Shown here in pieces: positions 40,733 through 62,814 of a stretch of DNA of 64,000 nucleotides. The stretch lies in assembly GCF_022846255.1 (NCBI RefSeq), contig NZ_AP025682.1, one strand, 5' to 3'. A program made the position numbers and the translations under genes. The stretch comes from Escherichia coli (GTDB lineage Bacteria; Pseudomonadota; Gammaproteobacteria; Enterobacterales; Enterobacteriaceae). Under the pieces are notes generated by a model, which was given only the letters and a program-made list of their open reading frames with translations, ran no database searches and was not told where the DNA came from. Every line of letters starts with the position of its first letter. The stretch's first letter is position 1.

Positions 40733-41800
40733 TTGCAAAGCATGCAGCTGTTAATTTTACTGATACAGCAAATGAAAGATAAATTACGATTTGAAGTGAA
40801 TGATACTCAGGGCCGTTTCATCTTTCCGGAAACATGGTTCAATACACTTATAGATGAATTTGAGGAACTGGTTGAGGCATATGATGCGGAAAAAATATGT
40901 GGGAAAAACTATATAAGTGAACTCCAGCGTCTTACCGAGCAGGTGCCTGATTTTATCGATGCGTACGCTCATTTGGCATACGTGTTTCTGGAACAGAATG
41001 CGCCATATCAAGCCCTGGATATGGCGCTTAAAGGTTTAGCTGTAGGTAACCGTTTAATAACAGAAGGGTTCAATGGAGAAATTCTCTGGATATATCCAGA
41101 GAATCAACCCTACCTGCGGGCCCTTTATGCTACAATCCTTGCCAATATACATCTTCAACATCATCAGGATGCCGTCATACTTACGGATAAAATATTGACG
41201 TATAACCCAGAAGATAATCAGGCTGCACGATGGTTACTGGGACAAGAACTGTTACGTGCAGGCGAGCGTGATCGGGCGCTGACCCGGTATTCTGATGAAT
41301 TTTCACCTTATTGGTATGAACTTGGATTTCTGCTCTTTCTTAACGGAGAGTTCGTGACGGCAGCAACTGCTTTTCGCCACGGTTTTGCCACTAATATCTA
41401 TATTGCAGATATTTTATGTGGAAATCTACATCCCTTTCCACTTCCTCTGTGGCATAGTTTCTTGGGAGGACCAGACATCGCTGAAGATTATTATGCAACA
41501 TATGGTCTGTTCTGGGGGCAATATCCGGAAGCATTACTTTTCGTAAATTGGCTCTACAATCAGTCATCTGTGTTGAATGAAAGAGCAACAATAATTAAGT
41601 GTGCAGAAGCATTGTTGCGAGAAGATGATTACGAGGCATGCGAGAAGATTCTTAAAGAACAGAAGAGATTACAGGATAATATTGACGACAGGATTTCTGA
41701 GAAAATAGTTAGGAAATACCGAACATTGCAAGGGGATGAGATTTGGCCATGGATGTTACCGTCTTCAATTGATAAGGAGCTGTCCCCTTTTGATGAATAA
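40733..41800 (+). CDS. Hypothetical helical-repeat (TPR-like) protein
   Basis: 355-aa ORF of moderate GC inside an AT-rich region; repeated amphipathic helix pairs; true start may be the internal MKDKLRF. Confidence 0.5.
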   Translation: MQSMQLLILLIQQMKDKLRFEVNDTQGRFIFPETWFNTLIDEFEELVEAYDAEKICGKNYISELQRLTEQVPDFIDAYAHLAYVFLEQNAPYQALDMALKGLAVGNRLITEGFNGEILWIYPENQPYLRALYATILANIHLQHHQDAVILTDKILTYNPEDNQAARWLLGQELLRAGERDRALTRYSDEFSPYWYELGFLLFLNGEFVTAATAFRHGFATNIYIADILCGNLHPFPLPLWHSFLGGPDIAEDYYATYGLFWGQYPEALLFVNWLYNQSSVLNERATIIKCAEALLREDDYEACEKILKEQKRLQDNIDDRISEKIVRKYRTLQGDEIWPWMLPSSIDKELSPFDE

Positions 41801-42428: not shown

Positions 42429-43739
42429 TTATTTTAATGGACTAATATCACTATTATTATCGCTATCTGTGATTTTTTCCCCATTCACGGAGATCATTCC
42501 CTGGATATATGAATCCCATAGATGTACGTCACCTTTATGAAAAATAATGCATGACATTGCGATTTTTTGTACTTTATATATCTGTTTATAGTATTCTTCT
42601 GAGTTTAATGGTGTATCTTTCAAGCTTTCATTCCTTGCTGGAAGAATCTTGACGGGACAGATAAAATCTGTATCCCCGAGTGAAAAGACATTAACTCCGG
42701 TTATAAAAAAGATACCCGGAATGTCTTGATGCAATCTCGTATTCCAGACTTGAGGATTAAACAGTTTATATGAATATTTATTTACATCTATATAATATTG
42801 ATGAGGACGCCAATCACTGATACCCGACATACTCATCGTCATATTGATAATTATATCAGGAATAGGTTTGAATAATACACTTAGAATGAACAATATGGCA
42901 GGAGGGAGTATTGCGATAGATAGCAAAGAGTTCAACCCTTCTTCTTGTTTTTCTTCTTGCTCATTTATCACTATCACACCTGGCAACATTCCTAAAAAGA
43001 TAAAAGCTAATGCAATGCAAGAAAATGATAGAAACTGTGATAAGATATCTGCACTCTCTTCAAGTCTGATCTTATTTGTCAAAAATAGCAGGGGGATAAT
43101 CTGAACAAGCCCGGGTAGAATTAAACATAAAGGAAGAGTGTATCTTATCCTGTTCCTGGGACGATATTGTTCGTGATTCTCGTGATTCTCGTGATTCTCG
43201 TGATTCTCGTGATTCTCGTGATTCTCAATGTTCTGTTCCCGAGGGGTATTTTTAGTGAATATTAATTTTTCTGAGAGGAAATATGAGACGAAATAATTAA
43301 ATAATACTATTAGTATTACTTCTGATATGGATGGATATAGAGTATTTTCTTCTGAAAAGGTAGACAGAACTGACTTTAGCACTAATGAAAAATAGAAAAC
43401 AACACTGTTCATATAGCAAATTATAGCAATTCTGTGCGCGATTCCTTTGTGATTTTTATAATAGTCTTTATGCCATGTATATGTATACACCAATACATGA
43501 GAAGATATAAAAATCAGTGAGGTTAGAGCCATTAGAGATAAAAGGATAAATATAAAGATAACACTTAAATAAAACTTTATGTCTATTGAGTCGAAAAACA
43601 AATCAAGTCTACCGAGTCCTTGCAGATAGAACCATATTGCAGATATGGCGCATCCTGTACTAAATACAGAAGACGTTAACATGGCGAGAAAAGCTTTATT
43701 ATTTAAATGTGAAAAGATAGATCTATTCATTATAAGCAC
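42429..43739 (-). CDS. Hypothetical polytopic membrane protein with an (ENH)6 His-rich repeat loop and a C-terminal soluble domain
   Basis: 436-aa very AT-rich ORF with multiple hydrophobic segments; 9-bp tandem repeat encodes ENHENHENHENHENHENH. Confidence 0.5.
   Translation of the reverse strand: MLIMNRSIFSHLNNKAFLAMLTSSVFSTGCAISAIWFYLQGLGRLDLFFDSIDIKFYLSVIFIFILLSLMALTSLIFISSHVLVYTYTWHKDYYKNHKGIAHRIAIICYMNSVVFYFSLVLKSVLSTFSEENTLYPSISEVILIVLFNYFVSYFLSEKLIFTKNTPREQNIENHENHENHENHENHENHEQYRPRNRIRYTLPLCLILPGLVQIIPLLFLTNKIRLEESADILSQFLSFSCIALAFIFLGMLPGVIVINEQEEKQEEGLNSLLSIAILPPAILFILSVLFKPIPDIIINMTMSMSGISDWRPHQYYIDVNKYSYKLFNPQVWNTRLHQDIPGIFFITGVNVFSLGDTDFICPVKILPARNESLKDTPLNSEEYYKQIYKVQKIAMSCIIFHKGDVHLWDSYIQGMISVNGEKITDSDNNSDISPLK
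43172..43225. repeat. 9-bp tandem repeat (CGTGATTCT)x6 inside the membrane-protein CDS (in-frame, encodes (ENH)6 on the - strand)
   Basis: Direct reading. Confidence 0.9.
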
Positions 43740-43945: not shown

Positions 43946-44707
43946 TCAGATATATTTTAATTTTGCTGATAGTTCTCGACATGCTTCAAGAACCAAAGTG
44001 GAATAATATTCTACTTTTTCTTTTGGCATTTGAATTTCCACACCACTAATGCTGATAGCAGCAATTGCTTCTCGAGCCTGATTAAACACCGGGGCGGCAA
44101 TGCAATAAATTCCTGGTGAATCTTCTGCGTTATCAAAAGCCCATCCTCGCTCACGAATACGTGCAAACTCTAGTATTAGATCAGATTTCCGAGTGATTGT
44201 CGTTTGCGTAAATCGAGGCAATGCCTCCTCAGGTAGTAAAGTGTCAATGACGTCTTGAGGTAACCATGCGCATAACGCTTTCCCCACCCCTGAGCTATGG
44301 AGTGGCAGCTTCTTACCTACCCACGTTCTGATACCAATTGGTTGAGTGCTTTCGAGTTTTAAGATATAGATTGGAGCGACTTCCTCAAGAATGCCTAAAT
44401 GGCAGATAAGATCAGTACTATCTCTCAGTTTTTCCAGCACCGGTCTCGCTACCTTACTTATGTCAAACTGTTCTAGCGAGCGATTTCCCCATTCATATAA
44501 TTTCAGTCCAAGGAAAAAACGCCCCCTTTCCTGACGTAACAAATGGTGTTCGACCAGAGCATTCAGTAAAGATGATGTGCTGCTTTTAGGCAGAGCCAGA
44601 TCTTGCTGGATTTGACTGAATGTGGCACCAGGAGAGTTGAAAAGATAATTGCAGATTCTGACTGTTTTATCGAGTGCTGGTACTGGTGTTCTTGTTTGAT
44701 TATTCAT
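43946..44707 (-). CDS. IclR-family transcriptional regulator
   Basis: 253-aa ORF with N-terminal HTH and C-terminal IclR effector domain; divergent from the catabolic operon. Confidence 0.8.
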   Translation of the reverse strand: MNNQTRTPVPALDKTVRICNYLFNSPGATFSQIQQDLALPKSSTSSLLNALVEHHLLRQERGRFFLGLKLYEWGNRSLEQFDISKVARPVLEKLRDSTDLICHLGILEEVAPIYILKLESTQPIGIRTWVGKKLPLHSSGVGKALCAWLPQDVIDTLLPEEALPRFTQTTITRKSDLILEFARIRERGWAFDNAEDSPGIYCIAAPVFNQAREAIAAISISGVEIQMPKEKVEYYSTLVLEACRELSAKLKYI

Positions 44708-45204
44708 AAAAAAATAACATATGATTTCTTACCAATGCTAAATAGTATACCCCAATCTTTATTAATGCATAGTGATGCTTAATCATTATGTTGCAGTTGA
44801 TCGACACAGGGGGACAAGAGTAGTTGTGTCACTGCCACATCACCCGGCATGCGATTTCACATCGGGATGTTCGAGAAGCATCAATGCTGCGCCCAAGATC
44901 CACCGAAAAGAAACGTGGGAATCACCGGCGGTGGGATTCATTGTCTATGCCCGTGTAGATTAGTGTGGATTTGCTGCACAGATGGTTCCGGTCTGAGAAA
45001 TGGGTAAATTCGTCGTTTACGACGGGAAGCTGCCTACACATGTTATACATCGTCTTCGTGTATCAACATGCTCCTATAAACTCGACTCAACTCACATTTT
45101 TCATTTCACATTGTAAAAACCTTTGACATGCAGAACCTTATTCTGATTCATTATATTCAACATGAAGAACTTTTGTTCCATATACAGAACTTAGTGAGAG
45201 CGAT

Positions 45205-46104
45205 ATGTTGACAGCGTTTAGAGGTATTTTTCCGCCGGTTCCTACTATTGTTGACGCACAGGGGAAACTGGATAAGACGGGTATGGCCCGAATGATTGAC
45301 CATGTAATAGAGAATGGTGCAAACGGAATGCTGATCCTAGGCAGTGGGGGCGAATTCTCACAATTTTCTTCCCAACAACGAAAAGAGATAGCAGCATTTT
45401 GTTTAAATCATGTAGATGGAAGAGTGCCTGTACTGGTGGGGGTTGCTTGTGCCGGGACAGCAGAAACTATTGAGCTGGGACGCCATGCTTATGAGCACGG
45501 AGCTGATGGTGTGCTGGTTGTTAATCCGTATTATGCAAAACTCAGCGATGATGCCCGGTTTATGCATTATAAATCTATTGCTGATACACTTGAAATCCCG
45601 GTGTTTCTCTATAACTTTCCTGATTTAACCGGCCAGGATATTGGACTTGAAGTCATTACCCGGCTGGCCCGGGAAGTTCCTAATATCGTGGGTATCAAAG
45701 ATACAATCGATAACATCAGTCATACCCGAGAAATTATCAACCGTGTACATTCATTTCGTCCGGATTTCATTATATTCAGTGGTTATGACGAATATATGCT
45801 GGACACTCTGTTACTGGGTGGTCATGGCGGTATTCCGGCAACATTCAATTTTGCTCCGGAAATCACACGGGGTATTTATCAGGCTGTTATGGAAAATGAT
45901 CTTGATAAGGCGCGTTATTTCCAACAACAACTGGCAAAATTGTCTCCGTTGTATGCGCTTGAGCAACCTTTCTTTGGGGTGATAAAGACCGCCATCAAAC
46001 TGAGTGGACTGGACATATCTACTGCAGTTATGGCACCGGCTCTTCCGCTCAGTGATGAGAAAATATCCAGAGTAAAATCCATTCTGGAACAAATTCATCA
46101 GTAA
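45205..46104 (+). CDS. DapA/NanA-family class I aldolase/lyase (dihydrodipicolinate synthase-like)
   Basis: 299-aa ORF with family motifs (GSGGEF, NPYY, Schiff-base lysine context IVGIKDT). Confidence 0.8.
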   Translation: MLTAFRGIFPPVPTIVDAQGKLDKTGMARMIDHVIENGANGMLILGSGGEFSQFSSQQRKEIAAFCLNHVDGRVPVLVGVACAGTAETIELGRHAYEHGADGVLVVNPYYAKLSDDARFMHYKSIADTLEIPVFLYNFPDLTGQDIGLEVITRLAREVPNIVGIKDTIDNISHTREIINRVHSFRPDFIIFSGYDEYMLDTLLLGGHGGIPATFNFAPEITRGIYQAVMENDLDKARYFQQQLAKLSPLYALEQPFFGVIKTAIKLSGLDISTAVMAPALPLSDEKISRVKSILEQIHQ

Positions 46105-46120
46105 TCACGAGGGACGCAGG

Positions 46121-47638
46121 ATGAATAACTCTCAGGTACTCAAACTCAATAATCTGGATGATGTTGTGATTGCCATAACAGAGCTTCCTGCCGGAAGCTG
46201 GTTGAAGGCAGAAAATATCGAAACGCGTGACCTTATTCCGGCCGGACACAAAATTGCTCTTCGTGATATTCCTGCTGGTAGTGCGGTTAAGCGCTATGGA
46301 CAAATTATCGGCTTTGCCACTCGTGATATCCGCCAGGGGGAACATATTCATGTTCATAATCTCGGTATGGGAAATTTTGAACGTGATTATGCCTGGGGAA
46401 TAGACAGCCATCTTCCTGAGCGGGATGTCCATCAGGATACTTTTATGGGGATCAGAAGAAAAGACGGGCGAGTGGCAACCCGTAATTTTATCGGTGTGCT
46501 GAGTTCGGTGAACTGTAGCGCAACCGTGGTCAGAGCCATTGAGGATCATTTCCGTACCCGAGGCCTGAGCGATTACCCGAATGTTGATGGTATTGTCGCA
46601 TTGCCTCAGAGCTTCGGCTGCGCCTTTGGCTCTAATACTGAAATGATGAAAGTCATGCGGAGAACGATAGCAGGCTATGCCACTCACGTAAACTTTGCCG
46701 GGATTGTGATAGTGGGACTGGGATGTGAATCATTCCAGATTAAGGACATGATGAATGCCCATGGACTACATGAAAACCCGATGTTTCATACACTGACAAT
46801 TCAGGAAAGTGGCGGAACACGCAACGCTATCGAAAAGGGTATTTCGTTTATTCTTGATATGCTGCCGGAAGCCAACAATGTTAAACGTGAACCTGTTCCA
46901 GTGTCAGAAATTATCCTGGCCCTTGAGTGTGGTGGCTCAGACAGTTACTCAGGAATTTCTGCCAACCCGGCACTCGGTTATGCAGTTGATCGTCTGGTCC
47001 GTCAGGGAGGGACGGCCATTCTGTCCGAAACATCAGAAATCTACGGAGCTGAGCATCTTCTGACACGCCGTGCTATTAATCGTGAAGTGGGAGAAAAGCT
47101 AATCCGCAGGATTAAGTGGTGGGAGGAGTACTGTAAACGTACGGGTAGTGAAATGAATAACAATCCCTCCGCAGGTAATAAAGCGGGAGGGCTGACTACT
47201 GTTCTGGAGAAATCACTGGGTGGAATCGCTAAAGCCGGGACAACCAGCTTAATGGATGTGTATGAATATGCTGAACCTGTAACAGCAAAAGGGCTTGTCT
47301 TTATGGATACCCCCGGGTACGACCCGATGGCGGTAACTGGGCAAATTGCCGGAGGCGCTAATCTACTGTGTTTTACCACGGGTAGGGGATCTGCCTTTGG
47401 AGCAAAACCCACGCCTTGTCTGAAACTGGCGACCAATAATGCATTATGGCAACGACAGCGTGATGACATGGATTTAAACTGTGGCACGATCGTTGATGGT
47501 GAAGAAACGATTGAACAGGTAGGGGAACGTATTTATCAGAGAATTATTGAGCTGGCTTCAGGTAACCGTAGCCGAAGTGAAGAACTTGGGTATGGGAGTC
47601 TGGAATTTGTTCCTTGGATAATGAACTCAATAATGTAA
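46121..47638 (+). CDS. UxaA/GarD-family sugar-acid dehydratase (altronate/galactarate dehydratase-like)
   Basis: 505-aa ORF with a GAGGGA RBS; N-terminal SAF-like domain and C-terminal dehydratase domain by recalled similarity. Confidence 0.7.
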   Translation: MNNSQVLKLNNLDDVVIAITELPAGSWLKAENIETRDLIPAGHKIALRDIPAGSAVKRYGQIIGFATRDIRQGEHIHVHNLGMGNFERDYAWGIDSHLPERDVHQDTFMGIRRKDGRVATRNFIGVLSSVNCSATVVRAIEDHFRTRGLSDYPNVDGIVALPQSFGCAFGSNTEMMKVMRRTIAGYATHVNFAGIVIVGLGCESFQIKDMMNAHGLHENPMFHTLTIQESGGTRNAIEKGISFILDMLPEANNVKREPVPVSEIILALECGGSDSYSGISANPALGYAVDRLVRQGGTAILSETSEIYGAEHLLTRRAINREVGEKLIRRIKWWEEYCKRTGSEMNNNPSAGNKAGGLTTVLEKSLGGIAKAGTTSLMDVYEYAEPVTAKGLVFMDTPGYDPMAVTGQIAGGANLLCFTTGRGSAFGAKPTPCLKLATNNALWQRQRDDMDLNCGTIVDGEETIEQVGERIYQRIIELASGNRSRSEELGYGSLEFVPWIMNSIM

Positions 47639-47705
47639 TAACACAGGGCAGAGTTTATCCTGCCCTGTTGAAGTAAACACCGTTTTAGATAATTAGAGGT
47701 GAATA

Positions 47706-48713
47706 ATGGAACAGAAACCTGTGTTGGGAATTTTTTTAGGTGAAGCTGCCGGTATCGGACCAGAATTGATTGCTAAGGTTGTTGCTGATGGTACTGTCTA
47801 TAAATATTGCAGACCCGTTCTGATTGGTGATGCCCGTGTTCTTGCTCTTGGACAAAAGATTGCGGGTGTTCATTTTCAATGGGATGTAATAAGTGACCCA
47901 TCAGAGGCAGACTGGAGCACAGGAAATGTACCATTACTTGATTTAAAAAATTTCAACCCCGAAAAACTAACTATGGGGACCATTGATACCGATTCAGGTT
48001 ATGCAACCGGGGAATCATTGGTAACCTGTATGTCATTACTCAAATCAGGAAAGATTGATGGTTTTGTTTTTGCTCCATTGAATAAAGAGGCGTTCAAGAA
48101 AGGGGGCTGGGATATTGAAGACGAACATTATCTGTTTGCAGAGCAGTTAGGATGCCTGGATAGACCTCGCGGCCTGTTGAATGTCCTGGATGATCTCTGG
48201 GTTTTCCGTGTGACCGGACATATTCCGTTCAAAGATATTGCCAGCCATATTACTCCAGAAAATGTTAGCCGTTCGATTCAGTTATGCTATGACACACTAC
48301 GTATGGCAGCTATTGAAAATCCGCGAATTGCAGTTGCTGCACTTAATCCCCACGCCGGGGATGGTGGAACCTGCGGCACCGAAGAAATAGACGTGCTCAT
48401 TCCAGTAATTGAAAGTTTTCGAAAGAAAGGAATGGACATGTATGGGCCAGTTCCAGGTGACACCATTTTTATTCATGCGTTTAATCATGAATATGATGCG
48501 GTTGTTACCCTGTTCCATGACCAGGGACAAATTGCTACTAAACTGCATTCCTTTGACGTGGGAATAACTGTTGCCGCAGGACTTCCGTTCGCTATTACAA
48601 CACCAGAACATGGCACTGCATTTGATATTGCAGGTAAGGGGATCGCAAAAACAATGGCTACAGAGAGGGCTATTGCCGTGGCGGCCAGAATGGCTTCTAC
48701 AACACATAAATAA
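47706..48713 (+). CDS. PdxA-family NAD-dependent dehydrogenase/decarboxylase (4-hydroxythreonine-4-phosphate dehydrogenase-like)
   Basis: 335-aa ORF; PdxA-like motifs (NPHAGDGG, HDQG). Confidence 0.7.
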   Translation: MEQKPVLGIFLGEAAGIGPELIAKVVADGTVYKYCRPVLIGDARVLALGQKIAGVHFQWDVISDPSEADWSTGNVPLLDLKNFNPEKLTMGTIDTDSGYATGESLVTCMSLLKSGKIDGFVFAPLNKEAFKKGGWDIEDEHYLFAEQLGCLDRPRGLLNVLDDLWVFRVTGHIPFKDIASHITPENVSRSIQLCYDTLRMAAIENPRIAVAALNPHAGDGGTCGTEEIDVLIPVIESFRKKGMDMYGPVPGDTIFIHAFNHEYDAVVTLFHDQGQIATKLHSFDVGITVAAGLPFAITTPEHGTAFDIAGKGIAKTMATERAIAVAARMASTTHK

Positions 48714-48983
48714 AAATTCATAATAGCAGATAATATAATGTCTAATCTATACAGATAGATGTGAATATTATCTGCGTTATAATAAACTGTATAAGGCTAT
48801 TATAAATAACAGTCGGTGTTTTGATAAGTTGCTGGTTGTTATATCTTTAAAACGAGTTGATGATATTTATTTACTAGATATTCAGTGCGATTATAGCAGT
48901 ACTGTATCGCAAGAAAATAGCAGTGCTGGGGAAGTAGAAAGAATAAATTGCGATTTGCATGCTCATAGATAAGGATAGATCTC

Positions 48984-50342
48984 ATGTATTCAGAATCATT
49001 TGTGATGATAAGTGGGCTTGTTGCAATAGTTATACTTATCATCTTGATCACCCGATTTAAGCTTCATCCTTTTTTTTCATTGCTTATATCGTCTGTATTT
49101 TTGGGAATTGTGAACAATATTGGAGTGGCGAAAAGTGTAGATATATTTACGCACGGGTTTGGTAGTCAACTGTCTGTCACGGGGGTAGTTATCGGCTTAG
49201 GCGCAATGTTGGGGGGGCTATTGGTACAGTCTGGAGGAGGGGACAAAATAGCCGATATTATTATTGGGTCTAGAAAAATTGTTTGGATGCCTCTGTGTAT
49301 TGGTATAGTTTCGTTAATCATCGGTCTACCTAACTTGTTTGAAGTTACTTTTGTACTGATGGTACCCCTTGTGTTCTCTATTACCAAACGTTTGGGGTTA
49401 CCTGTTCTCAGAGTTGCACTCCCAATGTCTGCAGGATTAATGACAGCTCATGCGTTATTACCGCCTGGTCCGGCAACTATTATCGCTGCTACGGCTTATG
49501 GTGCCAGCATCGGAGAAACTACGCTTTATGGGGTGATTATTAGTATACCTGTTCTACTCTCAGGAGCTTATCTTTTCCCAAAAATAATGCACAAACATCT
49601 TAACGTGGGAGAACCTTTGGCACTGAATGAAACTGAACATAGACGGGGAAATAACGAACGTCAATTATATCGCCAACCATCGCTGACTGTCGCTTTGATA
49701 ACAGTTATGATCGCCCCTTGTCTGATGATTGTTGGGACTATTGGACTTGACTTTTTGCCAAAAACAGGTGTGGTCACAGAGGTATTCCAGGCACTAGGCA
49801 ATCCAGTAATAACTCTTGGACTTGCTCTGGTTTATGCCATGATATTTCTGGGACGGGGAGTGGGTTTTAGTAATGAAGAAATCCTGTCTATCAGTAAGAA
49901 AAGTATTGTGCCTATTGTTGGTTTGTTGCTAATTATCGGTGGAGGCGGTGGATTAAAAAACATACTAACAGCAATTGGTCTAAGTGATATTATCAGTAAC
50001 TTTGCTACGGATTGGTCTATTCCTCCGCTATTATTTGCATGGCTGGTGGCAGCTATTTTCCGCATTGCGCTTGGCTCTGGAACGGTGGCGGTCTCAGCTT
50101 CAGGAGGAATCGTTGCCGCGTTACTTACAGCACATCCAGAAACTAACGCAGCTCTATTGGTACTTTCAACTACGACTGGGGCAATGATTTTTTCACATGT
50201 CAGTGATGGGGCATTTTGGTTATTCAAAGAATACTTTGGACTTAGCGTACCACAAACTATTCGCACATGGAGTTATTTAGTCACGATACAGTCCATTGTC
50301 GGGCTTATAGGTGTATTGGTTCTAGGCGCTATTCTCAGTTAG
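48984..50342 (+). CDS. GntP-family sugar-acid permease
   Basis: 452-aa hydrophobic ORF with GntP-like topology and motifs. Confidence 0.7.
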   Translation: MYSESFVMISGLVAIVILIILITRFKLHPFFSLLISSVFLGIVNNIGVAKSVDIFTHGFGSQLSVTGVVIGLGAMLGGLLVQSGGGDKIADIIIGSRKIVWMPLCIGIVSLIIGLPNLFEVTFVLMVPLVFSITKRLGLPVLRVALPMSAGLMTAHALLPPGPATIIAATAYGASIGETTLYGVIISIPVLLSGAYLFPKIMHKHLNVGEPLALNETEHRRGNNERQLYRQPSLTVALITVMIAPCLMIVGTIGLDFLPKTGVVTEVFQALGNPVITLGLALVYAMIFLGRGVGFSNEEILSISKKSIVPIVGLLLIIGGGGGLKNILTAIGLSDIISNFATDWSIPPLLFAWLVAAIFRIALGSGTVAVSASGGIVAALLTAHPETNAALLVLSTTTGAMIFSHVSDGAFWLFKEYFGLSVPQTIRTWSYLVTIQSIVGLIGVLVLGAILS

Positions 50343-50427
50343 TGGTTCTGTATTCAATATATAAGAAAGCAATATCAAGTTTTAACATCTTTAATTTAAT
50401 AGATATAGTATTAAAGGAGAGTAATTT

Positions 50428-51693
50428 ATGTCCTCCAATGAGAAAGCAACAAATATAAGATGGAGAATATTTTTTGTACTTTTTCTTCTTGTTGTTGTCA
50501 GTATGATTGATCGAGCCTCAATATCTATAGCTATGCCTACTATCGCTAAAGATTTGGGATTAAGCGATACGATGCAGGGATTAATACTAAGCGGTTTTTT
50601 CTGGACTTATGCTTGTATGCAAATACCCGGTGGGTTTCTGGCCGATAAATTTGGGGCAAGAATTGTACTGACATGTTCTGCCATTATTTGGGGAACTGCA
50701 GAAGCCTTATTAGGATTATGCCCAACAGGTTTCGCTTTACTTGCTGCTAATCTATTGCTTGGTGCAAGTGAAGCACCTGTGTTTCCCTCAGGCGCTAGAC
50801 TTAATGCAATTTGGTTAAATAAAAATGAAAGAGCTCGTGGAGCAACATTAATGGATGCCGGAGGTCCATTTGGGGCTGCAATTGGTGGAATATTAGTAGC
50901 TGAAATGATGCTTTATTTTGCATCGTGGCGGGTTACATTCATTATCTGTGGTGTTGCGGCTATCACTCTGGGGTTAATAGCTTACTGGATTATTCGCGAC
51001 AAACCTGAAGATTCACCAAATGTAAATGATAAAGAATTAAGTATTATTAATCTCGATCGTGTTGAGCAACATATAGTAGCAGAAAACAATGAGCCATTAT
51101 TAAAGGTTATTCCTCTACGTTCTTTTATTGGTATGCTTTTAGGTCGTTGTTCATGGGCAATGTGTTTCTTTGGTTTATTAACCTGGGGACCAGGATATCT
51201 TACACGAGCATTAAATCTGGATTTAAAAGCTGTTGGTTTTGCCACAATGATTATATTTTGCGCAGGTGGTTGTGGTAGTCTTTGTGGCGGATGGCTGGCA
51301 GATAAACTCGCAAGTAAAGGATTTGGGCGAGCTAGAACGTGTAAATTTCTATTAACTGTATCAGGTATCTGTACACTAATATCATTTGCTTTATTACCAA
51401 GCATACCAGATGTAAAAACATCAATTATTCTGCTGTCCTGCGCCGCGTTTGTTTTGATGTGGGGTAGTATGTACTGGACGTTTCCTCCTTTATTAGCTCC
51501 CCGTTCCCGTGTAGCTACTGTCGGGGGCATGATGAATATGGCTGGAAGTGTTGGAGGTATTTGCATTCCACTATTGGTAGGACTTATTTTGGATGTGACG
51601 AACTCATTCAATCCTGTACTCTACTTTTTTGCTGGTTGTGCTGTAATATTTATTTTAATGACTAATATTATCGATTTACGACACGTGCGATAG
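50428..51693 (+). CDS. MFS transporter (anionic sugar/sugar-acid type)
   Basis: 421-aa ORF with an AAGGAGAG RBS; 12 TM segments. Confidence 0.75.
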   Translation: MSSNEKATNIRWRIFFVLFLLVVVSMIDRASISIAMPTIAKDLGLSDTMQGLILSGFFWTYACMQIPGGFLADKFGARIVLTCSAIIWGTAEALLGLCPTGFALLAANLLLGASEAPVFPSGARLNAIWLNKNERARGATLMDAGGPFGAAIGGILVAEMMLYFASWRVTFIICGVAAITLGLIAYWIIRDKPEDSPNVNDKELSIINLDRVEQHIVAENNEPLLKVIPLRSFIGMLLGRCSWAMCFFGLLTWGPGYLTRALNLDLKAVGFATMIIFCAGGCGSLCGGWLADKLASKGFGRARTCKFLLTVSGICTLISFALLPSIPDVKTSIILLSCAAFVLMWGSMYWTFPPLLAPRSRVATVGGMMNMAGSVGGICIPLLVGLILDVTNSFNPVLYFFAGCAVIFILMTNIIDLRHVR

Positions 51694-51702
51694 GAGATAA
51701 AC

Positions 51703-52653
51703 ATGAACATCAAGCCACTAAATTTATATGATGGCCCTGTAATTGATGCGCATCATCACTTCTGGGATCCGATAGAAAATGATCATCCTTGGCTAAAGCC
51801 GGATGTTTTAATTCCTTTTAGATATGGTGATTATACGGCGATTAAGAAAAAATATTATCCTGAAGATTATTTTGCAGATGTAGGTGATATTAATGTCGTT
51901 GAAACCTGTTATATGGAGACTGAATGGAATCCAGCGGATCCATGTGGTGAAAGCGATTTCATTACATCAGTAGCAAAAATGACAGGTTATCCAAATGCTG
52001 TTGTCGGACAGGCTTGGTTAAATCATGATGATATAGATTCTGTGTTGAAGATGCAGAGTTCATATGAGTTGATGCGAAGCATCAGGCATAAGCCAGAGGG
52101 GCCTGATAAACCAGAGGATGTTGGATCGTATACAACTCTGATGAGTGATGAAAGATGGCGATATGGGTATTCATTACTTTCAAAATACAATCTAATGTTT
52201 GATCTGCAAACCCAGTGGTGGAATTTGCATGAAGCTGTAAAACTGGCAAATGATTTCCCAGACACAGTAATAATCCTTAATCATACAGGGCTCCCTGCAC
52301 AACGTTCTGTTGAAGGGTTGGCCGGGTGGCATTCAGCAATGGCTTCTTTGGCTGAATGTGAAAATGTGATGGTTAAAATATCGGGTATAGGTTTAAAAGG
52401 GATTCCATGGACAGTGGAGAATAATCTATGGATAATATCTGAAACGTTATCAATGTTTGGTCCTGACAGGGTCATGTTTGCAAGTAATTTCCCCGTGGAC
52501 AGTCTTTGTGGCAGTTTCAGTGATATATTTCATGGCTTTATGACTGTTTGCGAGATGAAAGGGTATTCACATGCGGCTCAGCGGAAAATGTTTCATGACA
52601 ATTGTAAGAGAATCTATCGAACAATCCCACCAAGTGAATTGAAGGAAGTATAG
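51703..52653 (+). CDS. Amidohydrolase-2 family metal-dependent hydrolase (lactonase/decarboxylase-like TIM barrel)
   Basis: 316-aa ORF with an AGGAGA RBS; N-terminal HHHFWD metal-binding motif. Confidence 0.65.
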   Translation: MNIKPLNLYDGPVIDAHHHFWDPIENDHPWLKPDVLIPFRYGDYTAIKKKYYPEDYFADVGDINVVETCYMETEWNPADPCGESDFITSVAKMTGYPNAVVGQAWLNHDDIDSVLKMQSSYELMRSIRHKPEGPDKPEDVGSYTTLMSDERWRYGYSLLSKYNLMFDLQTQWWNLHEAVKLANDFPDTVIILNHTGLPAQRSVEGLAGWHSAMASLAECENVMVKISGIGLKGIPWTVENNLWIISETLSMFGPDRVMFASNFPVDSLCGSFSDIFHGFMTVCEMKGYSHAAQRKMFHDNCKRIYRTIPPSELKEV

Positions 52654-52805
52654 CTGATAATCATATTTAATGATATCTGAGGTTTATTATTGTATAACTC
52701 ATGGAAATTCATGATTCGTAAATGTGAGTTATATCTATATGCTGTTGAATAGTGATACGCAAGAAGCACATAAAAATATAACATAATAATACTCCGTAAA
52801 CATTT

Positions 52806-52832
52806 CCCCCTTTTAAAAGAGGGGGAGTTTTT
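52806..52832 (+). terminator. Rho-independent terminator after the sugar-acid operon
   Basis: Hairpin CCCCCTTTT/AAAGAGGGGG followed by TTTTT, about 150 bp after the amidohydrolase stop. Confidence 0.5.
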
Positions 52833-52972
52833 ATTGTCATTGCTATACCATAGCTTGGAGAGGATTATTGGAATGGTAGAAGAGTCATTATGAGATAATA
52901 TTATTATCTGAGCTGGCCCCCTGAAATACCAGACAGTAGATGTATCTTAAAATAAGAGATAGGCTTGGATAT

Positions 52973-54311: not shown

Positions 54312-55397
54312 ATGTCCATTCTTCGTCCGAACGAAAATCTTGCAGCAGCTCTCAGCGATGATTCAGAGTTCAGCAATAGCATGCAGTTCAGGTTAATCCT
54401 GGCAAAGACTGTTGATGCAGGAGCCCCGGTTCCAGCGGATCTGGCTCTGACGTGGGTGACAAACCATATTGAATACTCATTACGAACCCCCGCCCGCCGC
54501 TGTGCGAAAGAATTTGCTGCACTATTTAAACGGCGTTACACCCTTAAATACGGTGAAGGGATGGTAGTGAAGCCGAATAAAGCGCGTCTGCGTTTAGATT
54601 ACACGCCTGCAAGTCCCAGTTTGAGAGGTATTCGGCTTCCTGTTCCTGACTTGCCTGATCCAAGTGCATTGAAAGGCCCTGTTCAGAAGCTTATGACTCT
54701 TGCTGATATATGCACAGATGAACTGGATGCTTACAGTCGTTACCTTGGTAGAAAAGGCACTTCAGCAAATGATACCGCTGCAATTTTGTTGCTGCCTTCA
54801 GAAATCGTTAACGAAAGCGCAGATAAATTATTAAGTGCATTCAAACGCTGGGCTGATGACGCGATCCTCAGTAAGGGGGGAGTAGTTTCAGTTGCTGACT
54901 TCTGGTCACACATGAATGCTACCTGTCCGGCAAAGATCAACAAAAAAGAGGCCGACTTGATGCAGGCCTTTGCACAGAAAATGGGGTACTGCCTGGCTCC
55001 TGACCCCTATTACCACCACGTAAAAGCAAATGTCGATGGTGTTCTTGTTTTATTCCCTGCTGGTGAAAGTGGCCGCTTCTCTCCTTCTCCTGAATTTATC
55101 ACAGCTGTATTGACGCTCCGATTAGGTTCGGTAGTCGCCTTGATTGACAATTCTTTCGATCAAGCCGAACAGAAAGTGCTTGAGAATGCCATCAACAACA
55201 ATGTCAGCTTCAGCGATGATGAAAAGCGCTCTCTGCACGCATATTTAACGTGGCAGCTTCATACCCCGGCGAATATGACGGGAATGAAAAGCCGGATTGA
55301 ATTACTCGGTGCAGCGGAAAAATCAGCTGTGGGTAAGGTTATCGTTAGTGTCGCTTGCTCTGACGGCAGAATTACGCCTGCCGAAATCAAACTGTAG
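54312..55397 (+). pseudogene. IS-flanked gene fragment, possibly a TerB-like domain protein, 3'-truncated by the IS911 insertion
   Basis: 361-aa ORF lying exactly between the IS2-group right end and the IS911 left end. Its stop codon TAG lies within the first bases of the IS911 terminus. The TerB-like call rests only on the weak pattern DNSFDQAEQKVLENAINNN...DDEKRSL. Confidence 0.35.
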
Positions 55398-57758: not shown

Positions 57759-58949
57759 TTATATAGCTGGTGACTCTTTTCGAAGAGCATCAAGGTAGTC
57801 AGCGTACCATTGCATCATTTCTCGTCTTCCTTCAAGGTAACGAGCATGGTTGTATGTACCACGAATGCTGTTTTTGTCCGTATGTGCAAGTTGCATTTCA
57901 ATCCATGCACTATTGAATCCTTGCTCGTGTAGAACAGTACTCATTGTATGACGAAATCCATGCCCGGTAGCTTTTTTGTCATAGCCAATCTTCTTCAAAA
58001 CCATATTGACGCTTGCATCGCTGATAGGCCTGTTAACATCATTTCTTCCGGCAAAGATGTATCTGTATCTTCCAGTCAGTTCTTTGAGGATTTGCAGAGA
58101 CTGGATTGCCTGATCTGACAGAGGGACGATATGCTCCTTCCTCATTTTCATCCGGGTCGGAGGAACTTCCCATATCTTTTGGGTAAAATCGATCTCACAC
58201 CATTCCCCCATACGTAATTCTACTGTTCTCAGCCCTGTGAGCATCAACAATTTTGTAGCTTCACGGGTTACAATACTGCCGGTGTAGTTTTCGAGTTTGT
58301 ATAAAAACTCTGGTAGTTCAGGAGGAAGCAGGAAAGGGTAATGTGTTCGCTTATAGCTTTTCATTGCTATAACCAGATCAGAAGCTGGATTGTATCGTGC
58401 CCGACCTGTAACAATGGCATACCGAAACACTTCACCACATCGTTGGCGAACTTTATTAGCTAGCTCGCAGGCTCCTCGGCTTTCGATACGCTGAAGAACT
58501 GCGAGAAGTTCAAGAGGTTCGATTTCACTAATGGGTCTGTTTCCAATGTAGGGAAACACATTATTTTTGAATGCTCTGTCGACATAATCAGCGTAGCTGG
58601 CAGACCAGCCTGAAACTTTTGCGTTGTACCACTCGGTGGCGATTGCGGCAAAAGTTCTTCCTTCGGAAAGGTTTTTCTCAAGATTTTCAGCTTTCTTGAC
58701 TTCACCGGGATCTTTACCATCGGCATGTATTTTCTTGGCTTCATCCCGACGTTTGCGAGCTTCAGCCAATGTAATAGTTGGATAGGTGCCAAATGATAGT
58801 TTCTTTTCCTTCCCCGCATAGTGGTACTTCATTCGCCAGTACTTTGAGCCGTTAGGATTGACCTGAAGGTAGAGCCCACCACCATCGGCAATCTTATAAA
58901 TTTTATCTTTGGGTTTGGCTGTTTCAACTTGTCGAGCTGTCAGTGGCAT
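57759..58949 (-). CDS. P4-type tyrosine integrase
   Basis: Start placed at MPLTARQVETAKPKDKIYKIADGGGLYLQV (typical P4-Int N-terminus); C-terminal catalytic motifs HGFRHT...Y. Confidence 0.8.
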   Translation of the reverse strand: MPLTARQVETAKPKDKIYKIADGGGLYLQVNPNGSKYWRMKYHYAGKEKKLSFGTYPTITLAEARKRRDEAKKIHADGKDPGEVKKAENLEKNLSEGRTFAAIATEWYNAKVSGWSASYADYVDRAFKNNVFPYIGNRPISEIEPLELLAVLQRIESRGACELANKVRQRCGEVFRYAIVTGRARYNPASDLVIAMKSYKRTHYPFLLPPELPEFLYKLENYTGSIVTREATKLLMLTGLRTVELRMGEWCEIDFTQKIWEVPPTRMKMRKEHIVPLSDQAIQSLQILKELTGRYRYIFAGRNDVNRPISDASVNMVLKKIGYDKKATGHGFRHTMSTVLHEQGFNSAWIEMQLAHTDKNSIRGTYNHARYLEGRREMMQWYADYLDALRKESPAI

Positions 58950-59076
58950 CTGGGGGCCTCGCAATAGATTGACCAAGATGTGCCCCTAAATAGGCCCCCA
59001 AATGTGACTTGATTTACGTTCCCCTGAGGAGAATTAAGGCGACTATTTGAGTAACATAAGTAAGGGTATGTGCTGA

Positions 59077-59640
59077 TTATAAAGGCTTTTTGTGGGGTAT
59101 GGTAGATTTCAGGAGAGGTGTGCATGGTGTCCCCTGCAGAATGATGTAAACACCTGCTGCGAAGGTAATAGATTGCATGATGGAGAACATGAACCAGTTT
59201 TTACCACCACTAAGCTCTTTCACCACATCTGCACGCGCAAACAGGCACGTCACCAGGAAAATTATGCTCATGGTAAAAGAGATAGCAACCGGCGTGTCGC
59301 GCAAGAACAGCAGACTTTTCGGCACATTCATGTCTTCAGTCGAGTGGTCTTTATTACCAAACTTGCTGCCGATGAAACCGGCCAATACATAATATAATGT
59401 TGAGAAGTGGCCGATGGCAACGTCATCAGAACCGGTCACTTTCTTCATGTACGGATGCGCAATAGCCGGGAAAAAGACCATTGCCACGCCAACAACCAAA
59501 GAGCCAACGGCTATAAGCGTAATGCCGGTCATGCCTGCTGTTGCCAGAATTACCGCTACCATCATCGACATAAACAACGTGTGATGACCGGTCAGGAAGA
59601 TAAATTTCCACGGTGTGAAACGGGCAATCAGAATGTTGAT
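59077..59640 (-). pseudogene. Internal fragment of a PTS ascorbate-family (SgaT/UlaA-like) EIIC gene
   Basis: Minus-strand translation ...FLTGHHTLF...IGH...STEDMNVPKSLLFLRDTPVAISFTMSIIFLV...ILQG parallels the central region of UlaA-type IIC proteins; no N-terminus, and it diverges before the C-terminal half. Confidence 0.4.
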
Positions 59641-59642
59641 AA

Positions 59643-60014
59643 CCATCAGAACCGCTGGACTATCCCTCGGAAACGTTAGCTGAGATCCGCCATACCGGCG
59701 CACGAGCCGGGCTGGCATTTAATCCGGCGACCCCAATCGACGCCTGGCAATATCTAGCGTCTGAGCTGGACGGCGTGATGGTGATGACCTGTGAGCCCGA
59801 TGGGCACGGACAGCGGTTTATTCCCTCTATGTGCGAGAAAATCCAAAAAGTACGCACGGCTTTTCCTCAGACCGAGTGCTGGGCCGACGGTGGAATTACG
59901 CTGGCGGCAGCACAGCAACTGGCTGCAGCCGGGGGGCAGCATATGGTGATTGGGCGCGTCTTGTTCTTTTCATCTGACTATCGCGCGACCTTAGCTCAAT
60001 TCGCCACCCTGTAA
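59643..60014 (+). pseudogene. 3' fragment of a ribulose-phosphate 3-epimerase-family gene (SgcE/Rpe-like)
   Basis: In-frame translation ...TLAEIRHTGARAGLAFNPATPIDAWQYLASELDGVMVMTCEPDGHGQRFIPSMCEKIQKVR...ECWADGGITLAAAQQLAAAGGQHMVIGRVLF matches the C-terminal half of Rpe (GLVFNPATP ... GFGGQSFIP ... VDGG ... AAGAD). A TAA at 59640-59642 closes the frame upstream. Confidence 0.55.
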
Positions 60015-60030
60015 GAGGAGATTGTTTCTG

Positions 60031-60813
60031 ATGAGCCAACAGAGACCTGACCGTATCAAACAGATGCTGCACTACCTGTGGCAACATCGTCACCTCTCCA
60101 CACAGCAGGCCATGGAGCTTTTTGGCTATGCGGAGGCGACTGTCCGTCGTGATTTTCAGTATATTGCCAACCAGTACCCAGGAATGATCCGCGGTCACGG
60201 TTGTCTCGACTTCGACGACAGTACTGACGACAAAGAGTACGTTTTCGATGTGAAACGTACATTGCAATCTGTGGCGAAGAGAGAAATAGCCGCCCTTGCC
60301 CGAACGATGATCAAAGATGGCGACTGCTTTTTTCTCGACTCCGGCTCAACCTGCCTCGAACTGGCGAAATGCCTGGCCGATGCACGGGTGAAGGTCTCCT
60401 GCAACGACATTAAAATCGCCAATGAGCTGGGCTGTTTTCCCCATGTGGAAAGCTATATTATCGGTGGACTGATTCGCCCGGGTTATTTTTCGGTAGGAGA
60501 GAGTCTGGCGCTGGAGATGATCAATGCCTTTTCCGTAGAACGTGCGTTTATCTCCTGCGATGCGCTGTCGCTGGAGACGGGGATCACCAATGCCACCATG
60601 TTTGAGGTCCGGGTGAAAACACGGATTATTCAACGCTCGCGTGAAGTTATTCTCATGGCCGAACACTCAAAATTTGATGCCGTTGAGCCGCATGCTGTAG
60701 CAACACTCTCATGTATTAAAACGATCATTAGTGACAGCGGGTTACCTGAGACTATTGCACAGCGTTATCAGCGAGCCGGATGTCAGTTGTTTTTACCTCA
60801 TTCAATAAAGTGA
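60031..60813 (+). CDS. DeoR-family transcriptional regulator (SgcR-like)
   Basis: GAGGAG RBS before ATG 60031; N-terminal HTH and C-terminal DeoR sugar-binding domain; sits between the epimerase fragment and the yjhI-like gene as sgcR does in KpLE2. Confidence 0.7.
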   Translation: MSQQRPDRIKQMLHYLWQHRHLSTQQAMELFGYAEATVRRDFQYIANQYPGMIRGHGCLDFDDSTDDKEYVFDVKRTLQSVAKREIAALARTMIKDGDCFFLDSGSTCLELAKCLADARVKVSCNDIKIANELGCFPHVESYIIGGLIRPGYFSVGESLALEMINAFSVERAFISCDALSLETGITNATMFEVRVKTRIIQRSREVILMAEHSKFDAVEPHAVATLSCIKTIISDSGLPETIAQRYQRAGCQLFLPHSIK

Positions 60814-61115: not shown

Positions 61116-61904
61116 ATGGTTCGCAAAGGGTGTAATTCATTAGTCCGTGCTGAAAAAATATTAACCCACATTGCATGGGTTGGTATGGCAAGTTATATGG
61201 AGTTATTAAATAAATTTCAGTACCCAAAAAGCAGCCTGCTTAATTTATTGAATGTAATGGTGGAGTGTGGTTTCTTAATTAAAAACAAAAACGGCTACTA
61301 TTCACTGGGAATAAAAAACTACGAATTGGGTTGTCAGGCGTTACACCGCCAAAATATATTTGAGGTGACTAAGCGGCCAATGCAGGAGTTGTCGCTGAAA
61401 AGTGGACTGGTTTGTCATCTTGGGGCGATGGAGAGCATTTCGGCTATTTATCTCGACAAGATCGAAAGTCCGGACTCTGTACCGACGAGCAAAAGCTGGA
61501 TTGGCAAAAAACTTGAGTTGCATATTACCGCGTTGGGTAAGGCATTATTAGCCTGGAAGACACGAGAAGAATTAGATTATTTTTTAGAAGCACTCACGTT
61601 AACTCCGCATACGCGCAATACATTTACCGATAAAAAATCATTTCTGGAAGAATTACAAAAAACACGCCTTCGGGGATGGGCCATAGACAACGAAGAATCA
61701 ACCTATGGTGCGGTATGTTTAAGTATGCCGGTATTCAATATGTATAACAGAGTTAACTATGCAATCTCACTTTCTGGCGATCCGGTAATTTATTCAGGAA
61801 ATAAGATAGACAGCTATCTGGAGTTGCTCCGGAAATGCACAGGGCAAATATCATATGGGCTGGGATACAGAAACGAAAATGAGCATTTACGAAAAGGAAA
61901 CTGA
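61116..61904 (+). CDS. yjhI: IclR-family regulator (YjhI/XynR-like)
   Basis: 262-aa ORF with an AAGGAGGAG RBS, directly upstream of yjhH/yjhG-like genes. Confidence 0.65.
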
Positions 61905-61908
61905 GGTA

Positions 61909-62814
61909 ATGAAAAAATTCAGCGGCATTATTCCACCGGTATCCAGCACGTTTCATCGTGACGGAACCCTTGATAAAAAGGCAATGCGCGAAGTTGCCGA
62001 CTTCCTGATTAATAAAGGGGTTGACGGGCTGTTTTATCTGGGTACCGGTGGTGAATTTAGCCAAATGAATACAGCCCAGCGCATGGCGCTCGCCGAAGAA
62101 GCTGTAACCATTGTCGACGGGCGAGTGCCGGTATTGATTGGCATCGGTTCCCCTTCCACTGACGAAGCGGTCAAACTGGCGCAGCATGCGCAAGCCTGCG
62201 GCGCTGATGGTATCGTCGCCATCAACCCCTACTACTGGAAAGTCGCCCCACGAAATCTTGACGACTATTACCAGCAGATCGCCCGTAGTGTCACCCTACC
62301 GGTGATCCTGTACAACTTTCCGGATCTGACGGGTCAGGACTTAACCCCGGAAATCGTGACGCGTCTGGCTCTGCAAAACGAGAATATCGTTGGCATCAAA
62401 GACACCATCGACAGCGTTGGTCACTTGCGTACGATGATCAACACAGTTAAGTCAGTACGCCCGTCGTTTTCGGTATTCTGCGGTTACGATGATCATTTGC
62501 TGAATACGATGCTGCTGGGCGGCGACGGTGCGATAACCGCCAGCGCTAATTTTGCTCCGGAACTCTCCGTCGGCATCTACCGCGCCTGGCGTGAAGGCGA
62601 TCTGGCGACTGCCGCGACGCTGAATAAAAAACTACTACAACTGCCCGCTATTTACGCCCTCGAAACACCGTTTGTCTCACTGATCAAATACAGCATGCAG
62701 TGTGTCGGGCTGCCTGTAGAGACATATTGCTTACCACCGATTCTTGAAGTTTCAGAAGAAGCCAAAGAAAAAGTCCGCGCACTGCTGTCCGCGCAAGGTA
62801 TTTTATCGGACTGA
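61909..62814 (+). CDS. yjhH: DapA-family 2-dehydro-3-deoxy-D-pentonate aldolase (YjhH-like)
   Basis: Start at [50 protein letters not shown], recalled as near-identical to K-12 YjhH. Confidence 0.8.

Follow-up and report, generated by a model that had tools for sequence, protein, structure and literature searches.

In a stretch of 64,000 nucleotides of Escherichia coli DNA (RefSeq assembly GCF_022846255.1, contig NZ_AP025682.1), which is called the window in the following, positions 43946-52653 carry a cluster of seven genes. An earlier note, made from the sequence alone, had described it as an IclR regulator divergent from a sugar-acid catabolic operon of unassigned substrate. Families were assigned with NCBIfam profiles, and Pfam domains were taken from identical or near-identical proteins. 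All seven predicted genes (7/7) are present and intact (Table 1), each of them full length compared to its homologues in E. coli, Hafnia and Citrobacter, and the open reading frames (ORFs), coordinates, strands and families that the note had reported could be confirmed throughout. NCBIfam supports each family name, and the curated cut-off is reached by the GntP subfamily model only, so that none of the proteins is a named, characterised orthologue. Nor have these ORFs come together by chance, since a six-gene version of it occurs in 451 E. coli genomes and the gene set recurs in distant bacteria. Most likely, the cluster is an IclR-controlled acid-sugar catabolic operon whose enzymes would carry out lactone opening, dehydration and aldol cleavage.

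Table 1. Genes and other features of the cluster at positions 43946-52653 and its close surroundings.
Position	Strand	Feature	Remark
43946-44707	-	IclR-family transcriptional regulator, divergent from the operon	253-aa ORF
44757-45036	.	Extra intergenic DNA, ~280 bp, relatively GC-rich	Separates the IclR gene from the promoter region of the operon
45167-45190	+	Candidate operator, overlapping palindromes GAAC-N4-GTTC-N8-GAAC	Immediately ahead of the first gene of the operon
45205-46104	+	DHDPS/NAL-family (DapA-family) class I aldolase, YagE/YjhH-like	
46121-47638	+	UxaA/GarD-family sugar-acid dehydratase, D-arabinonate/D-idonate subfamily	
47706-48713	+	PdxA-family NAD/metal enzyme, non-phosphate clade	
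48984-50342	+	GntP-family acid-sugar:H+ symporter	TIGR00791
50428-51693	+	MFS transporter, related to the D-galactonate transporter subfamily; its gene forms a pair with that of the lactonase	
51703-52653	+	Amidohydrolase-2 (PF04909), predicted lactonase	
52804-52837	+	Terminator-like hairpin and T-run	10-bp stem, 5 G-C pairs, then TTTTTATTGT; consensus match only

The best NCBIfam matches of the regulator are BhcR, KdgR and IclR, all below their equivalog cut-offs, and its gene is kept beside the cluster in E. coli, Hafnia, Citrobacter, Serratia and one distant metagenomic version. The palindrome ahead of the operon is possibly the control site of this regulator. Its half-sites are invariant in the promoter regions of the window, E. 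coli, Hafnia and Citrobacter werkmanii, where the mean column identity is 79%. A conserved TTGACA is found at 45123-45128 with no properly spaced -10 element, and a convincing sigma-70 promoter could not be called upstream of the operon. The extra intergenic segment is bracketed by a 10-nt inverted repeat (44714-44723 and 45037-45046), is absent from the E. coli DFL.5 (no alignment), Hafnia and Citrobacter versions, and megablast found nothing similar to it among 5426 complete E. coli genomes. At the other end, the terminator named in the earlier note is matched by a hairpin and T-run 150 bp past the last stop codon.

The first two genes of the operon encode the enzymes that would dehydrate and cleave the sugar acid. 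The best solved relatives of the aldolase are those of E. coli YagE (E 2.7e-87; 47% identity over 282 residues), a protein annotated as 2-keto-3-deoxy-sugar-acid aldolase whose gene lies directly upstream of the D-xylonate dehydratase gene yagF. The Schiff-base residue Lys165 is present within a GIKDT motif, and the score is below the DapA equivalog cut-off (184.3 vs 206.15), so the protein is not a true DapA. We propose that it acts as a 2-keto-3-deoxy-L-pentonate aldolase giving pyruvate and glycolaldehyde. The neighbouring dehydratase carries SAF and GD_AH domains (PF08666, PF04295, PF20629, recorded for the 100% identical protein P0001), and Cys132, Cys167, Cys202 and Cys270 are invariant in 119 homologues, matching the four conserved cysteines reported for UxaA/GarD-family dehydratases in PMC6336799. 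Its identity to Burkholderiales proteins is 63-66%, and two of these carry the JGI name arabinonate dehydratase. The subfamily includes a D-arabinonate dehydratase and a D-idonate dehydratase that are 67% identical to each other (Watanabe et al., 2019, PMC6336799). As 67% identity already parts two substrates, 63-66% cannot fix the substrate of the window enzyme. An Acinetobacter homologue (70% identity) adjoins an AraD1/GguC protein and an aldehyde dehydrogenase, a neighbourhood that can be read as a pentonate-to-alpha-ketoglutarate route and that supports a pentonate substrate for this clade of dehydratases. The UxaA-family enzyme is therefore proposed as a putative pentonate dehydratase.

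The note had stated that the gene combination does not match the galactarate, altronate or xylonate routes, and this holds. The sole NCBIfam match of the dehydratase is galactarate dehydratase, at 401.6 bits against a cut-off of 730.85 (TIGR03248), so the protein is not GarD, and it is of the UxaA type and not of the IlvD type found in the D-xylonate enzyme YagF. The GarD and altronate routes were rejected on this score and on their different gene context.

The third enzyme has the fold of PdxA and probably another task. It scores below all PdxA and PdxA2 equivalog cut-offs (260.4, 284.7 and 204.9 against 290.35, 470 and 583, respectively). His172, His216 and His271, in the THI, NPH and HDQG motifs, are invariant in the alignment (A1) and are presumably the counterparts of the metal ligands of E. 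coli PdxA. Two further motifs, GHTE and RTS(V/A)DH, are common to E. coli PdxA, Salmonella PdxA2, D-threonate-4-phosphate dehydrogenase and PDB 4jqp; their putative role is phosphate binding (GHTE and Arg292). In the window protein they have become DEHY and ITTPEH (from GHTE and RTSVDH), and both GHTE and the arginine of RTS are lost in all of the cassette- or UxaA-linked PdxA homologues examined (25/25). A neighbour-joining tree of these 25 sequences and four phosphate-substrate enzymes separated the two groups in each of 60 bootstrap replicates (60/60). Within the tree, the UxaA-linked proteins group with a Clostridium enzyme whose gene adjoins TctABC in one clade of 100% support, and the proteins linked to LyxD (L-lyxonate dehydratase) form another. 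The window protein is 38-40% identical to the LyxD-linked ones, about the same as to PDB 4jqp (38%). The sequences thus place it in a sister subfamily of the presumed 2-carboxy-L-lyxonate decarboxylase; it is probably not an orthologue. A true PdxA or PdxA2 was rejected on the scores, the lost motifs and the lack of a DUF1537 kinase gene. The nearest non-enterobacterial relative (56% identity) is that of Clostridium swellfunianum (L008, 10001-20535), whose gene is surrounded by TctCBA, three genes of the sugar-phosphate isomerase/epimerase type, an Asp/Glu racemase gene and a split transketolase, with a sigma-54 activator; these genes represent a further, unassigned pathway whose PdxA belongs to this subclade.

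The evidence that points to a substrate comes from the far end of the operon. The sole named NCBIfam match of the amidohydrolase is L-fucono-1,5-lactonase (E 1.3e-21; 77.5 bits against a cut-off of 400), its PDB relatives include 4dlf, and an HxH motif, His194 and Asp266 are invariant in the alignment (A2). Its closest relatives outside the enterobacteria are Pseudomonas proteins of 58-60% identity that are encoded in LyxD loci beside PdxA. In Pseudomonas fulva and Metapseudomonas furukawaii the order is MFS-Amidohydro_2-PdxA-...-MFS-MR_MLE, and the MFS protein of the window is 49% identical to the one encoded directly upstream of the P. fulva amidohydrolase. The MR_MLE protein of the Pseudomonas loci scores 626 bits to PDB 3STP, which we take to be the LyxD structure of Ghasempur et al. 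2014.

How widely this arrangement is kept was read from a scan of one genome per species with an amidohydrolase alignment, and the 80 loci returned were scored by tblastn. A locus was counted as close when its amidohydrolase shares 53% identity or more with that of the window (n=25). A PdxA-family gene is present in 24/25, the exception lying at a contig end, and a homologous MFS gene lies directly upstream of the amidohydrolase gene in 22/25. What follows this front end differs from locus to locus. A LyxD back end is found in 15/25 (Pseudomonas); a dihydroxyacetone-kinase-type back end, in most cases with a TIM-barrel isomerase, in 4/25 (Cricetibacter, Budvicia, Rhizobium and a metagenome-assembled genome (MAG)) and also in Leminorella; and a UxaA and DHDPS back end in 2/25 (C. 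werkmanii and a chicken-gut MAG) and also in the metagenomic locus L018. In Caballeronia and Paraburkholderia the order is LyxD-MFS-PdxA-amidohydrolase-DHDPS-like, with lower amidohydrolase identity. MFS, lactonase and PdxA are a conserved front-end cassette joined to three alternative back ends. From this linkage the amidohydrolase is proposed to be a 2-carboxy-L-lyxono/xylono-lactone hydrolase and the MFS protein the putative importer of the carboxy-lactone.

The second transporter, GntP, passes its model (TIGR00791) with 353 bits against a cut-off of 292.75. Its gene is 74% identical at the DNA level to that of Hafnia, is missing from the common E. coli version and encodes the sole transporter of the four-gene versions of Hafnia and Citrobacter. 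The presence of two transporters had been taken in the note as a sign of more than one substrate. Both are there; because GntP goes with the lactonase-free Hafnia and Citrobacter versions and MFS goes with the lactonase, two forms of one substrate family are the more plausible explanation.

The cluster exists in several nested versions. In Serratia it consists of IclR-DHDPS-UxaA-MFS and a GldA-type dehydrogenase, with no PdxA. The four-gene versions of Hafnia and Citrobacter portucalensis add PdxA and GntP to DHDPS-UxaA and are without lactonase, the common version, that of E. coli, Salmonella and C. werkmanii, combines PdxA with MFS-lactonase, and the window version carries GntP as well as MFS-lactonase. 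The six-gene version without GntP, ~86% identical to the window, occurs in 451/5426 complete E. coli genomes (~8%), and the six-gene core is collinear in these genomes and in C. werkmanii. The exact seven-gene form, with GntP and MFS-amidohydrolase together, was found in none of them (0/5426), and a search of plasmids gave one partial match to the cluster. Compared over all shared genes, the window cluster has ~86% identity to the E. coli version and ~74-78% to that of Hafnia. On these values, an origin by recent recombination between Hafnia and E. coli was rejected, and the window cluster is a third lineage beside these two. IclR, DHDPS, MFS, amidohydrolase, split UxaA and PdxA genes also recur, reordered, in two distant metagenome-derived loci (L018 and L021); in L018 and the chicken-gut MAG, IclR is followed by DHDPS-MFS-amidohydrolase-split UxaA-PdxA. 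That these genes stay together in a different lineage and a different order speaks for a single functional unit. GldA-type dehydrogenase genes adjoin the Serratia and Citrobacter versions. An iron-dependent alcohol dehydrogenase gene close to the Hafnia cluster was not used as evidence, as it is the ordinary yqhD and has the gene of an AraC-type regulator alongside.

The earlier note had left the substrate open. In agreement with it, a syntenic, near-identical operon with an experimentally defined substrate was looked for and none was found, the E. coli genomes giving only the uncharacterised ~86% six-gene version, and a literature search for this gene combination found no description; one E. 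coli paper that mentions PdxA concerns the unrelated pdxA2-dtnK cluster. The cassette and its LyxD link now point to a substrate class, the 2-carboxy-L-pentonolactones derived from ascorbate. In the pathway of Stack et al. 2020, ascorbate is reportedly converted via 2,3-diketogulonate to 2-carboxy-L-lyxonolactone, which is opened by a lactonase of the amidohydrolase superfamily; a PdxA-family enzyme that uses NAD+ catalytically then reportedly decarboxylates the product to L-lyxonate, the substrate of LyxD. On balance, we regard it as somewhat probable that the cluster is an enterobacterial variant of a pathway for branched C6 acids that arise from the decay of vitamin C. The most likely substrate family comprises 2-carboxy-L-lyxonolactone, 2-carboxy-L-xylonolactone and the open-chain 2-carboxy-L-threo-pentonate. 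The branched acids, together with L-lyxonate and L-xylonate, arise spontaneously from 2,3-diketogulonate (PMC11066805).

From the observed genes and their families, the cassette and the motifs lost from PdxA, we infer the following scheme with all its substrates and products, the order of its steps and its regulation. The lactone would be imported by the MFS protein, and GntP would probably take up the open-chain or a related acid form. The amidohydrolase would open the lactone to 2-carboxy-L-pentonate, from which the PdxA-family enzyme would strip one of the two carboxylates on C2 to leave a pentonate (L-xylonate or L-lyxonate), by way of a transient NAD+-dependent oxidation of the neighbouring hydroxyl. 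The UxaA-family dehydratase would convert the pentonate to 2-keto-3-deoxy-L-pentonate, the YagE-like aldolase would cleave this to pyruvate and glycolaldehyde, and IclR would repress the operon until an intermediate accumulates. Of the steps that the earlier note had listed (lactone opening, dehydration, oxidation and aldol cleavage), three are retained. The oxidation is replaced, since the link of the cassette to ascorbate-derived carboxy-lactones makes it more likely that PdxA is an NAD+-assisted decarboxylase, active ahead of the dehydratase, than that it brings about a net oxidation. The sequence of steps, from the lactonase via PdxA and UxaA to the aldolase, follows from the nested versions of Serratia, of Hafnia and Citrobacter, and of E. 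coli: dehydratase and aldolase would form a self-sufficient core for an imported sugar acid, PdxA would feed this core and the lactonase would feed PdxA. Chemical reasoning leads to the same order, since a 2-carboxy-pentonate has no hydrogen on C2 and an UxaA-type dehydratase, which abstracts the alpha-proton, could act only after decarboxylation.

Several points weigh against the vitamin C assignment. Upstream genes of the ascorbate pathway (cytochrome b561, gluconolactonase, beta-propeller) are absent from the seven genes. That the Pseudomonas cassette corresponds to the characterised Cupriavidus enzymes is an assumption drawn from gene context. The Hafnia and Citrobacter versions have GntP and no lactonase, and the GntP family usually carries mono-anionic sugar acids, so that such a carrier fits a dicarboxylate poorly. 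The separate subclade of PdxA, at only 38-40% identity to the LyxD-linked proteins, may carry out a different reaction, and the NCBI pipeline (PGAP) names the E. coli orthologue of the dehydratase D-arabinonate dehydratase. Finally, the UxaA/GarD substrates known to us (D-altronate, galactarate, D-arabinonate, D-idonate and L-fuconate) are all threo at C2/C3. L-xylonate has the configuration of D-idonate from C2 to C4 and L-lyxonate is erythro; either L-xylonate as the decarboxylation product or a new specificity of the dehydratase is thus needed.

The dehydratase is also the starting point of a competing explanation that we consider quite unlikely, a non-phosphorylative lactone route for D-arabinonate, L-fuconate or L-galactonate in which PdxA is accessory or unrelated. 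D-arabinono- or L-fucono-lactone would be opened, dehydrated by a D-arabinonate dehydratase and cleaved by the aldolase to pyruvate and glycolaldehyde or lactaldehyde. It draws on the PGAP label of the E. coli orthologue and the Burkholderiales relatives of 63-66% identity, two of them JGI arabinonate dehydratases, a range that is not decisive given the 67% that parts D-arabinonate from D-idonate enzymes. The only named family matched by the lactonase, L-fucono-1,5-lactonase, also hydrolyses D-arabinono-1,4-lactone, but that match is weak and set against 60% identity to lactonases linked to PdxA and LyxD. A small aldehyde product would suit the GldA-type dehydrogenases by the Serratia and Citrobacter versions, and the characterised Herbaspirillum enzyme is specific for D-arabinonate, with L-fuconate as second substrate (PMC6336799). 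The route has no role for PdxA, a gene retained in E. coli, Salmonella, Citrobacter and Hafnia as well as in the distant versions.

We also judge it unlikely that the cluster degrades some other acid sugar of the branched or dicarboxylic kind, such as an aldarate, a hexarate monolactone, D-apionate or a plant-derived carboxy-sugar. In this case PdxA would shorten the chain by a true oxidative decarboxylation, ahead of dehydration and cleavage. Members of the PdxA family are classically oxidative decarboxylases of beta-hydroxy acids, such as PdxA2, TphB and ApnO, the window protein falls into a subclade of its own, and its 56%-identical Clostridium relative is found with TctABC, sugar isomerases and transketolase and not with a lactonase or UxaA. 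Galactarate dehydratase as the sole NCBIfam match of the dehydratase would fit an aldarate as well, but its score is far below the cut-off. The lactonase (60% identity) and the MFS protein (49%) speak for the lactone of the LyxD-linked cassette or an epimer of it, and for apionate the DUF1537 kinase and RuBisCO-like protein typical of such routes are absent from the ORF list. That the cluster is a mosaic assembled by insertion sequences (IS) on a pathogenicity island, with no common pathway or partly decayed, seems highly improbable. In favour of it, the part of the island that holds the cluster is rare, low in GC and flanked by IS, the seven-gene arrangement was not seen in the complete E. 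coli genomes and the 280-bp stretch sits in the promoter region. Against it, none of the seven genes is damaged, six of them form a core that is collinear in the 451 E. coli genomes and C. werkmanii, the set recurs reordered in distant bacteria, and the palindrome near the promoter is conserved.

A more far-reaching form of the vitamin C assignment can be put forward tentatively and is itself rather doubtful. One prochiral intermediate, 2-carboxy-L-threo-pentonate, would be handled by three PdxA subfamilies that make three products, each with its matching back end. L-lyxonate would be passed to the enolase-type LyxD (the known case), L-xylonate to a threo-specific UxaA-type dehydratase and aldolase (the window cluster), and a tetrulose formed by double decarboxylation to the Dak-kinase/isomerase module of Leminorella, Budvicia and Cricetibacter. 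Because C2 of the open-chain acid is prochiral, a diverged PdxA could yield L-xylonate, and this product would explain both the separate PdxA subclade and the changed dehydratase family.

Comparison with known systems shows both kinship and distance. The ascorbate pathway of Cupriavidus necator H16 (Stack et al. 2020) and the L-lyxonate pathway of P. aeruginosa (Ghasempur et al. 2014), to which it is joined, are represented by the MFS-Amidohydro_2-PdxA-...-LyxD loci of Pseudomonas and Caballeronia. These share with the window the homologous adjacent pair of MFS (49%) and amidohydrolase (60%), a PdxA of the same non-phosphate clade and the logic of lactone opening, decarboxylation to a pentonate and dehydration. 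In contrast to them, the window has a UxaA-family dehydratase and a YagE-like aldolase in place of LyxD, 2-keto-3-deoxy-L-lyxonate dehydratase and alpha-ketoglutarate semialdehyde dehydrogenase; genes of the MR_MLE, FAH-type dehydratase and aldehyde dehydrogenase families are absent from 43946-52653. Carbon would end as pyruvate and a C2 aldehyde and not as alpha-ketoglutarate, the regulator is IclR whereas theirs is LysR, and PdxA belongs to the sister subclade (38-40% identity). The Dahms-type D-xylonate clusters of E. coli K-12, yagEF-xynR and yjhIHGF, resemble the window in their IclR-type repressor, in an aldolase gene of the DHDPS family directly followed by a dehydratase gene, in an acid-sugar transporter gene nearby (presumably GntP-type in the yjh cluster) and in the would-be end products pyruvate and glycolaldehyde. 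Their dehydratases are of the IlvD/Edd family whereas that of the window is UxaA/GarD, the window adds PdxA, MFS and lactonase, and its regulator is only 31% identical to XynR. The D-arabinonate dehydratase of Herbaspirillum huttiense (C785_RS13685) and the D-idonate dehydratase of Paracoccus are alike to the window enzyme in subfamily, as judged by the Burkholderiales relatives, in the four cysteines and in a 2-keto-3-deoxy acid downstream, whereas their context offers a FAH-type dehydratase or hydrolase and dehydrogenases instead of PdxA, lactonase and aldolase. As judged from gene content, the window cluster belongs to neither published system, having no LyxD/alpha-ketoglutarate branch and a PdxA that is probably not orthologous.

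The loci of Leminorella, Budvicia, Cricetibacter and Rhizobium, with the order MFS-PdxA-Dak1-Dak2-MFS-Amidohydro_2-sugar isomerase, share the MFS-lactonase pair (51% and 60%) and a non-phosphate PdxA. Their Dak-type kinase and TIM-barrel isomerase suggest a ketose product and not a pentonate, and this type of cluster may route the same lactone to a tetrulose phosphate. It was noted in Leminorella grimontii (L019, 4054-11351) and also in the loci L035 and L038; in L019 the genes of transaldolase, RpiB and triose-phosphate isomerase are found nearby.

The cluster is part of an E. coli island, as the left part of the window carries capsule and Ag43 genes of 98.9% identity to those of urinary E. 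coli isolates. The stretch of ~37.5-52.8 kb is rare, and its upstream flank (37.5-43.9 kb) is almost matchless in the 5426 genomes. This flank carries a 355-aa ORF at 40733-41800 (+) with no NCBIfam match and one E. coli genome match (71.5%, annotated as tetratricopeptide repeat protein), and at 42429-43739 (-) the gene of a 436-aa predicted membrane protein in DNA of 32% GC, with an (ENH)x6-type repeat NIENHENHENHENHENHENHEQ and no NCBIfam match. At the left end, positions 1-4000 have a GC content of 29% and hold a 1117-aa ORF (37-3390) that adjoins the capsule (kps) region. Downstream of the cluster there are IS2- and IS3-type elements, between which lies a 361-aa ORF (54312-55397, +) with no NCBIfam match. 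A P4-type tyrosine integrase gene (57759-58976, -) stands beside a truncated fragment of an ascorbate-family IIC protein of the phosphotransferase system (59077-59718; profile positions 100-273 of 415), followed by a DeoR-family regulator gene (60022-60813). The segment 57759-60813 may be the island boundary; tRNA genes were not found within the window. Further on, a second IclR gene (61116-61904) overlaps a DHDPS-family gene (61855-62814) whose product is 59% identical to YagE. By likeness, 61116-62814 is taken as a yjhI-yjhH-type D-xylonate module, which would give the window two paralogous IclR-aldolase pairs.

If the vitamin C assignment is true, ~8% of complete E. coli genomes and Salmonella and Citrobacter relatives carry a dedicated route for branched acids derived from dehydroascorbate, and Hafnia has a lactonase-free version. 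To our knowledge, this class of nutrients has not been linked to enterobacteria so far, the known ascorbate genes there being ula and yia. Ascorbate decay products leave the body in urine and abound in plant food, and on an island of the type found in extraintestinal pathogens the cluster could therefore be a niche-fitness trait. Should the three-product scheme also hold, the cluster of E. coli, Salmonella and Citrobacter would include a stereodivergent decarboxylase and the first UxaA-family L-xylonate dehydratase, and vitamin C decay products would be open to gut and urinary isolates. The assignment would also give new functions to families that are misleadingly annotated as "PdxA", "altronate/D-arabinonate dehydratase" and "amidohydrolase", and the cluster family offers a clean case of one front-end cassette plugged into three back ends.

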